This document shows, piece after piece, positions 59,057-59,404 of a stretch of 64,000 nucleotides of DNA. The stretch is from Octopus vulgaris (lineage: Eukaryota), in assembly GCA_951406725.2 (NCBI GenBank), contig OX597834.1:7626001-7690000 (forward strand), written 5' to 3'. A program made the translations under genes and the position numbers. The number at the start of each line of letters is the position of its first letter. The stretch's first letter is position 1. The notes under the pieces are model-generated. The model was not told the DNA's origin. It was given only the letters and a program-made list of their open reading frames with translations, and did no database searches.

Positions 59057-59404
59057 AAAATAGTAAAAAGTGAAAAAACTACAGAAGGCTTGTTTTAAAA
59101 GGTTAAAAAAATATATATTTGAGTCACTATGTCTGAAGAATGTTATAAAGTTTTTTCATACAATGACATAGTTTAGAAGAAATGACCGGTTTCGCGTTCA
59201 GCTTTTCAAATTTCTTAAATCGCTCAACGGAAACATTACGATTTAAGAAATTTGAAAAGCTGAACGCCAAACCGGTCATTTCTTCTAAACTATGTCATTG
59301 TATGAAAAAAATTTATAACATTCTTCAGAGATATTGACTCAAATATATATTTTTTTACCTTTTAAAACAAGCCTTCTGTAGTTTTTTCACTTAATACTAT
59401 TTTT
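59057..59404. mobile_element. Hairpin element (about 165-bp arms) in (TA)n with U3-A8 hammerheads (family H10)
   Basis: 59177-59216 (-): AAGAAAT-TTGAAAA-GC tgaac GC-GAAAC-CG-GTC/ATTTCTT, 7-bp stem I. The plus-strand copy at 59245-59284 has GAAA>CAAA. Confidence 0.82.

Follow-up and report, generated by a model that had tools for sequence, protein, structure and literature searches.

A hairpin of probable Penelope-like origin with a U3-A8 hammerhead motif in Octopus vulgaris DNA, and its high-copy family

Minimal hammerhead ribozymes with a U3-A8 core pair are known from Penelope-like elements (PLEs). In the parts of Cervera and de la Peña (2014; PMC4209133) on which we draw, they are described from the Cercyon PLEs of Schistosoma mansoni, with about 1,300 hits; representative 4 has the literal core UUGAAAA, helix III is palindromic, and cleavage is weak and occurs only in the dimer, published minimal hammerheads in general cleaving weakly even as dimers. 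The same parts report pairs of hammerheads on opposite strands, 100-700 bp apart, and, in the legend to Fig. S4A, a 5'-truncated PLE with a second hammerhead on the opposite strand. That small PLE hammerheads cleave as dimers is also stated in PMC6765202, in the portion that deals with Lünse, Weinberg, and Breaker (2017). In the sections of Perreault et al. (2011; PMC3088659) used here, natural covariation to U3-A8 is reported, a 2-bp stem II is frequent in some hammerheads, and a weak stem III is common.

For PLEs more generally, the portion of Craig et al. (2021; PMC8557442) at hand describes copies that are truncated at the 5' end and have an inverted, likewise truncated neighbor, a tail of 30-40 bp that is often confined to one end, (TA)n as the target, and a hammerhead close to the 3' end. 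In Frangieh et al. (2024; PMC11167929), the tail is explained by two start sites of the reverse transcriptase (RT), and AT-rich cleavage and a protein-assisted hammerhead are reported. For retrozymes, 8 of 9 dimers did not cleave, according to the part of the preprint by Li, Clavereau, and Pollet (2026; bioRxiv 10.64898/2026.07.22.740005) considered here.

We have analyzed a 64,000-nucleotide stretch of Octopus vulgaris DNA (the window), in which a hairpin at 59049-59410 carries a hammerhead motif in each arm. We consider it very probable that this hairpin represents two truncated 3'-end copies of one high-copy repeat, inserted head-to-head in (TA)n in the manner of a PLE and likely silent at this site. 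The novelty that a preliminary description of the hairpin had implied does not hold, in that the U3-A8 pair, the literal UUGAAAA, cleavage as a dimer, and opposite-strand pairs are all present in the parts of PMC4209133 cited above, and natural U3-A8 in those of PMC3088659. Since both a U3-A8 core and a dimer formed through helix III are already published, the locus adds a new family and not a new principle. What may remain beyond prior work is the 2-bp helix II, together with sibling elements that have an A3-U8 pair.

The hairpin and its two hammerhead motifs

The hairpin had been placed at 59057-59404. The hairpin itself stands, and its bounds have moved; the arms reach slightly further on both sides (59049-59410), and, on the left side only, another 35 bp of the element (59014-59048) separate the arm from (TA)n (Table 1). 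The arms align over 174 columns at 95.4% identity, with 6 substitutions and 2 gap columns. All 6 of the substitutions are uncompensated transversions, and both arms have changes that are private when compared with the family majority. Transversions also account for 11 of the 14 substitutions in an inverted repeat at 61.8 kb, and the other hairpins are mixed; these numbers are small. The window as a whole is AT-rich and full of microsatellites, and its repeats are, we assume, reminiscent of octopus SINEs.

Table 1. Positions, within the window, of the parts of the hairpin and of the sibling motifs
Feature	Position	Strand	Remarks
Left (TA)n-rich microsatellite	58950..59013 (start approximate)	none	likely target, from sequence
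35-bp one-sided extension ("tail")	59014..59048	-	3' end of minus copy only; contig cover places it in the family
Left arm, copy of the 3' end of the element, truncated 5'	59049..59222	-	
16-nt spacer, putative natural upstream of plus copy (second truncation point)	59223..59238	+	contig loose ends
Right arm, tailless 5'-truncated copy that enters (TA)n	59239..59410	+	
Right (TA)n microsatellite	59404..59495	none	from sequence
Intact type I hammerhead motif	59177..59216	-	U3-A8 core, 7-bp helix I, ACCGGU, GUC; conserved in family
Hammerhead motif with G12C at 59268	59245..59284	+	family has no variant of at least 5% at the equivalent 59193
Second U3-A8 motif	28911..28948	+	UUGAAAA (28914), 4-bp helix II, ACCGGU, GUA; (TA)n follows 55 nt downstream
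A3-U8 motif AUGAAUA	61877..61911	+	GC/GC 2-bp helix II, ACCGGU, GUC, 5-bp helix I
A3-U8 motif, second copy	62602..62636	-	opposite arm of the inverted repeat at 61807-62706

Read 5' to 3', the motif of the minus arm consists of the 5' strand of helix I (59216-59210), the core UUGAAAA (59209-59203), a helix II of two base pairs (GC/GC) with a 5-nt loop (59202-59194), GAAA (59193-59190), the palindrome ACCGGU (59190-59185), C17 (59184), and the 3' strand of helix I (59183-59177). Both motifs read away from the hairpin center, and U3-A8 replaces C3-G8. As a description of the two motifs, the preliminary one was exact: a 7-bp stem I, a 2-bp stem II, ACCGGU, GUC, an intact minus arm, and a plus arm in which GAAA has become CAAA at 59268. 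Cleavage of the minus-arm motif is predicted between 59184 and 59183.

When compared with the type I core (N3-UGA-N-N8-A...GAAA...UH, with a Watson-Crick 3-8 pair), the minus arm and the family majority conform, and the plus arm departs from it at G12. The helices also agree with type I, with 7 bp in helix I and 2 bp in helix II; helix III has 1 bp in the monomer and 6 bp in the predicted dimer. Two marks of PLE minimal hammerheads, a palindromic 15.1-16.1 segment (ACCGGU) and the G10.1-C11.1 pair, are present; the unpaired base between 9 and 10.1 with a long helix II is absent. Given a helix II of 2 bp and the lack of a 9.1 bulge, we class the motif at 59177-59216 as a variant of the PLE minimal hammerhead. 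G12 is the general base of hammerhead catalysis, and the G12C motif of the plus arm is likely to be catalytically dead.

The hammerhead motif stands far above what chance would give. With a 6-nt palindrome required, a strict U3-A8 descriptor matched none of 200 block-wise dinucleotide shuffles, two or more U3-A8 matches of any kind were likewise seen in 0 of 200, and a pattern that left positions 3 and 8 free had 4 matches in the window, compared to none in 100 shuffles; all of these descriptors were composed post hoc, with the motif already seen. No hammerhead model is among the 150 Rfam matches listed, of 211 in the window at E<=1, and the C3-G8 motifs of the window are likewise unlisted there. 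Pattern matches in metagenome and viral contigs (49, in 48 loci) were rejected as chance, since only 2 combine a helix I of at least 4 bp with a NUH site and none has (TA)6.

The family in public contigs and its probable mode of insertion

The stretch 59016-59245 was compared with public contigs from 4 of 24 listed runs, with matching at 80% likeness, which favors conserved stretches. It matched 2125 contigs in run X1, 1177 in X2, 859 in X4, and 158 in X9 (organisms A, B, C, and A, respectively), numbers that identify a high-copy repeat. Summed depth over the ribozyme in X1 was 3-4e5, compared to 5-85 for listed single contigs; this value is no copy number, though it suggests that family copies are in the thousands. 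RNA is not the recorded source of any listed run; for X9 it is just a guess, and its 158 contigs are not evidence of transcription.

Across the four runs, no substitution reaches 5% of depth in the core, GAAA, helix II, or the palindrome. The sole substitution of at least 5% within the 40-nt motif is at 59184 (N17), at 33% in X4 and below 3% in the other runs; it changes GUC to GUA and keeps NUH. At 59183, within helix I, one nucleotide is deleted in 6-17% (about 10%) of a low local depth. Positions that vary at 5% or more number 1 of 40 inside the motif and 14 of 161 outside it, 2 of the 14 being private changes of the window copy, a contrast that is small and suggestive only. The family is neither of the CUGANGA type nor stemless; it keeps UUGAAAA and GAAA, which supports the compensatory U3-A8 hammerhead core that had been proposed for the hairpin.

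Because no family variant of at least 5% falls in the core or GAAA, the CAAA of the plus arm is likely private to that arm, and G12C is likely a product of decay after insertion. Its place among six uncompensated arm substitutions, with private changes in both arms, fits ordinary decay. A special significance of an intact arm next to a mutated one finds no support: of the 6 uncompensated differences, G12C is just one, and each ribozyme is on the strand opposite to the other.

The contigs also tell us about the ends of the element. Copies that end at 59049 and pass straight into (TA)n were found as loose ends in 39, 22, and 21 contigs (X1, X2, and X4, respectively), and the family has two types of 3' end, with and without the tail. 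Beyond 59216-59222, loose ends in X1, X2, and X9 enter, by eye, sequence like the other strand of the spacer and then extend further. Since these ends resemble the other strand of the spacer, the spacer would be the natural upstream sequence of the plus copy, with separate truncation points for the two arms. A fold-back elsewhere, at 59141/59176, is seen in one X1 contig. In the four runs, contig cover is absent at 59224-59245 and no contig crosses the hairpin junction; contigs show presence, not absence.

This anatomy fits a PLE insertion in several respects. The 5' truncation with an adjacent inverted copy is found at 59049-59410, as is the optional tail of 30-40 bp at one end (35 bp at 59014-59048, with both end types in the family); the partial-tandem pLTR arrangement is absent here and present in other families of the window. 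In 6 of 9 hand-picked inverted elements of the window, (TA)n lies at most 9 nt from one arm and 36-98 nt off on the other side. We imagine that the GIY-YIG endonuclease of a PLE would nick the (TA)n target and that RT might start at either of two sites, leaving one end with the tail and the other without it. Both strands may then be copied only briefly, so that PLE target-primed reverse transcription would yield an inverted pair of 5'-truncated copies. Neither RT nor GIY-YIG was found in a Pfam search of the 150 longest nonrepetitive of the window's 347 open reading frames (ORFs; stop-to-stop, at least 60 aa), in which there were 4 weak hits below the cutoff; thus, PLE membership is drawn from the anatomy and the ribozyme, with no linked protein. 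A truncated copy would not hold such an ORF anyway.

Long and near-perfect inverted arms, TA flanks, a high copy number, and the lack of an ORF would equally suit a DNA-transposon MITE or foldback element with a TA target duplication, in which the hammerhead would be a passenger or a matter of chance. We regard such an origin as improbable. A tail that is optional and one-sided, arms cut at different points, and a second fold-back point are at odds with it, as are a motif and a 3-8 covariation far above chance and a family sequence that runs past the loop (no contig extends over this junction). Elements of that kind should have fixed ends and a fixed internal sequence across copies, which this family does not have, and a fixed-structure MITE does not fit and is largely refuted.

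If the copies are of PLE type, their source could have been an autonomous PLE, to which we give slightly less than an even chance, or a short non-autonomous retrozyme-like unit of ~215 nt, to which we give slightly more; the choice is near even. A narrower version of our reading, that the family is a non-autonomous, retrozyme-like unit of 215-220 nt derived from tandem or circular RNA, with adjacent hammerheads dimerizing in cis, is possible and falls a little short of an even chance. About 12 nt past the inner end of the arm, the loose ends of X1, X2, and X9 enter a purine-rich stretch of 11-13 nt that resembles the end of the tail (by eye); as they reach sequence like the outer tail end, the unit would be ~215 nt, the size of a retrozyme. 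Published monomers are 220-245 nt and of PLE origin (parts of PMC7229834 and of bioRxiv 10.64898/2026.07.22.740005), and ORF-less, hammerhead-bearing partial tandems do exist in the window, with units of 561 bp (9537-11025) and 511 bp (40685-41467). Against these points, a go-back joint from the inner end of the arm to the tail is not among the joints listed, the contigs being short, and the similarity of tail and spacer within the window is not significant (p=0.63, three hairpins compared). Moreover, the retrozymes in the part of PMC7229834 used here bear canonical, not minimal, hammerheads.

The two tandems have features of their own. At 9537-11025, about 2.65 copies of the 561-bp unit, 98-99% identical, stand between two (TA)n runs; each unit has a minus-strand C3-G8 hammerhead-like motif with an irregular helix II, a near-palindromic helix III, and GUC, and the whole looks like a non-LTR retrozyme array. 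The ORF-less, PLE-shaped unit at 40685-41467 consists of (TA)n, then a 114-bp inverted copy, and then the 511-bp partial tandem; a well-formed C3-G8 hammerhead with a long palindromic helix III lies within it at 41154.

Predicted folding and the fate of this copy

In folding predictions, the monomer hammerhead has an energy of +3.0 kcal/mol and a probability of about 1e-7, and shuffled sequences fold as well as the monomer motif does (z=+0.9). A double hammerhead with six intermolecular ACCGGU pairs is at -14.3 kcal/mol and is the minimum-energy dimer of a 46-nt form; a 57-nt form is predicted to dimerize in a different fold (-19.1 versus -14.3 kcal/mol). Set against the positive energy of the monomer, the dimer value supports the earlier suggestion that the ribozyme must dimerize through stem III, and cleavage is predicted only as a dimer held through ACCGGU. 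The topology of a double hammerhead is such that each core would cut the site of its partner; thus, a G12C strand should be cleavable by an intact partner while itself unable to cut. The double hammerhead that contains G12C is predicted at -13.9 kcal/mol.

At this locus, the ribozymes of the two arms are on opposite strands, which bars dimerization within one transcript. RNA reading through the whole element is predicted to form a rod (-238 and -241 kcal/mol) with a helix I probability of 0.000 and a fully paired core. Given that such RNA would be a duplex of ~170 bp that buries the core, it seems likely that the copy at 59049-59410 is silent. One can envision a source element that had two same-strand copies in one RNA, in a tandem or a partial tandem, or whose folding was assisted by protein; in the source RNA, a double hammerhead formed by the six intermolecular ACCGGU pairs might then be cut after GUC.

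Could the hairpin have a function as it stands? An intact arm and a dead one might together act as a ribozyme under regulation or as a hairpin selected to yield small RNAs, and the very high stability of the rod (those same -238 and -241 kcal/mol) would suit this, as would a weak Rfam match to MIR5185 (56.9 bits, below the cutoff of 101.7). We find this very hard to believe: the six arm substitutions are all uncompensated transversions, each arm departs from the family majority in changes of its own, and the ribozymes lie on opposite strands, with the core fully paired in read-through RNA. The sub-threshold Rfam matches to microRNA hairpins over 59049-59410 were dismissed as generic hairpin scores.

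For the family as a whole, it is conceivable, if unlikely, that the motif is a relic or a protein-binding signal that no longer cleaves. Helix II is very weak, and there is no recognizable contact between loops 1 and 2; in Poseidon PAc, in vitro insertion was unaffected by mutation of the hammerhead, and RNA ends at the site were not found (PMC11167929). A relic would not be expected to keep its core, palindrome, and NUH site across the family, as this motif does, nor to have a 3-8 pair that covaries among families. The motifs of the window are candidate RNAs for the question of whether PLE minimal hammerheads cleave in vivo.

Sibling motifs and comparison with known systems

A UUGAAAA core with different stems had been noted at 28914, and it is there, with a 4-bp helix II, GUA, and a helix I of 3 bp that is extendable beyond a mismatch. 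Its flanks have no significant similarity to the element at 59049-59410 (shuffle p=0.33), and it is a single copy of another family. It does not follow that the core at 59177-59216 is a second, independent one, as had been proposed, since the motif at 28914 agrees with it exactly in the heptamer and the palindrome, and an A3-U8 sibling has its helix II and cleavage site too; with so much in common, common descent appears at least as likely as independence.

The A3-U8 siblings are in an inverted repeat at 61807-62706 (92% over 217 columns), where the motifs at 61882 (plus strand) and 62631 (minus strand) point inward, each ~60 nt upstream of a TA run. Their heptamer, AUGAAUA, differs from the UUGAAAA of 59177-59216 at positions 3 and 8 only. 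A more decayed A3-U8 pair is found in the head-to-head hairpin at 28184-28565, which has AUGAAUA cores, an 8-nt palindrome (ACCAUGGU), GUA, and imperfect helices; it ends in (TA)n and has a tail of about 50 nt on one side. Its tail and downstream region is weakly similar to that of the 59049-59410 element (shuffle p=0.02, in 1 of 36 comparisons). A related lineage seems a better account of the A3-U8 and U3-A8 elements than independent origins would be.

In a scan with positions 3 and 8 left free, all 7 hits had a Watson-Crick 3-8 pair (3 C-G, 2 U-A, and 2 A-U), compared to 11 of 57 in 100 shuffles; counted by locus, the pair is Watson-Crick at 5 of 5 (Fisher p=0.0007, with a descriptor composed post hoc). 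All three pair types occur within one 64-kb window. We put forward tentatively, as an idea that may well prove wrong, that these elements form a high-copy, PLE-derived lineage with a stripped hammerhead (a 2-bp helix II and an ACCGGU dimer helix) in which the 3-8 pair has naturally flipped between U-A and A-U, possibly a retrozyme of ~215 nt with a minimal ribozyme. With a third pair type in the A3-U8 siblings, the C3-G8 pair would gain support from natural covariation. A natural A3-U8 pair was not found in our searches of the literature and is present in 0 of the 56 representatives of Fig. S3 in the part of PMC4209133 used here; Lünse et al. (2017) and Przybilski and Hammann (2007), the latter on exchanges of the 3-8 pair, may already cover it or a helix II of 2 bp. 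Searches for CUGANGA only would miss U3-A8 and A3-U8 families, and PLE-type repeats scored as lacking a hammerhead may, if this is true, need a recount.

Other hairpins of the window have hammerheads or parts of them. The one at 19946-20174 has two classical C3-G8 minimal hammerheads (20051, minus strand, and 20080, plus strand) with a bulged A and an ACGU palindrome, and the hairpin at 20906-21071 is made only of the post-cleavage part of the same family. Hairpins or copies at 7768-8031, 27487-27613, 45303-45935, and 49916 have 3' half-cores (GAAA, palindrome, and UH) and one-sided extensions; the family at 7.8 kb seemingly has a CCGAAGA-like 5' core, a possible U4C variant. Two copies of another long-armed hairpin family (19223-19479 and 46822-47121) have different centers and no hammerhead in our scans.

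One further likeness concerns Naiad elements. On the minus strand, the ~23 nt at 59170-59193, from GAAA through the 3' strand of helix I, resemble by eye an RT-coding stretch of one Naiad consensus, that before Naiad_Mmer, in the part of PMC8557442 used here; the next Naiad there is without it, and the likeness is likely due to chance. Among the Naiad, Hydra, and Chlamys 3' ends in the portion of the Craig supplement (PMC8557442) at hand, motif searches gave none with this ribozyme, in a text whose line breaks can hide matches.

How, then, does the locus compare with what has been described? With respect to the ribozyme, it is closest to the Cercyon hammerheads (PMC4209133, as excerpted here), with which it shares U3-A8, a palindromic helix III, G10.1-C11.1, the need for a dimer, and the opposite-strand pair. 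It differs from the PLE hammerheads of that source in a helix II of 2 bp, compared to at least 3 bp in the 56 representatives of Fig. S3, in a 7-bp helix I, in the ACCGGU palindrome, in the absence of the unpaired base after A9 that the consensus has, and in the lack of a linked PLE ORF. The section of Perreault et al. (PMC3088659) on core variation makes no mention of A3-U8 and gives no PLE context.

In its manner of insertion, the locus is like the EN+ PLEs (Neptune, Poseidon, and Naiad), as far as the published portions used here describe them, in 5' truncation, an inverted truncated copy, an optional tail, a (TA)n or AT-rich target, and a hammerhead near the 3' end. It also resembles the non-LTR retrozymes (PMC7229834 and the 2026 preprint, both in part) in being ORF-less, with a type I hammerhead, a possible monomer of ~220 nt, and likely mobilization by PLEs; unlike them, it has a minimal ribozyme with U3-A8, and the copy at 59049-59410 is inverted rather than tandem. 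Placed among these systems, the family extends U3-A8 hammerheads of PLE type to the genome of another animal, where their copy number is high and their architecture smaller.
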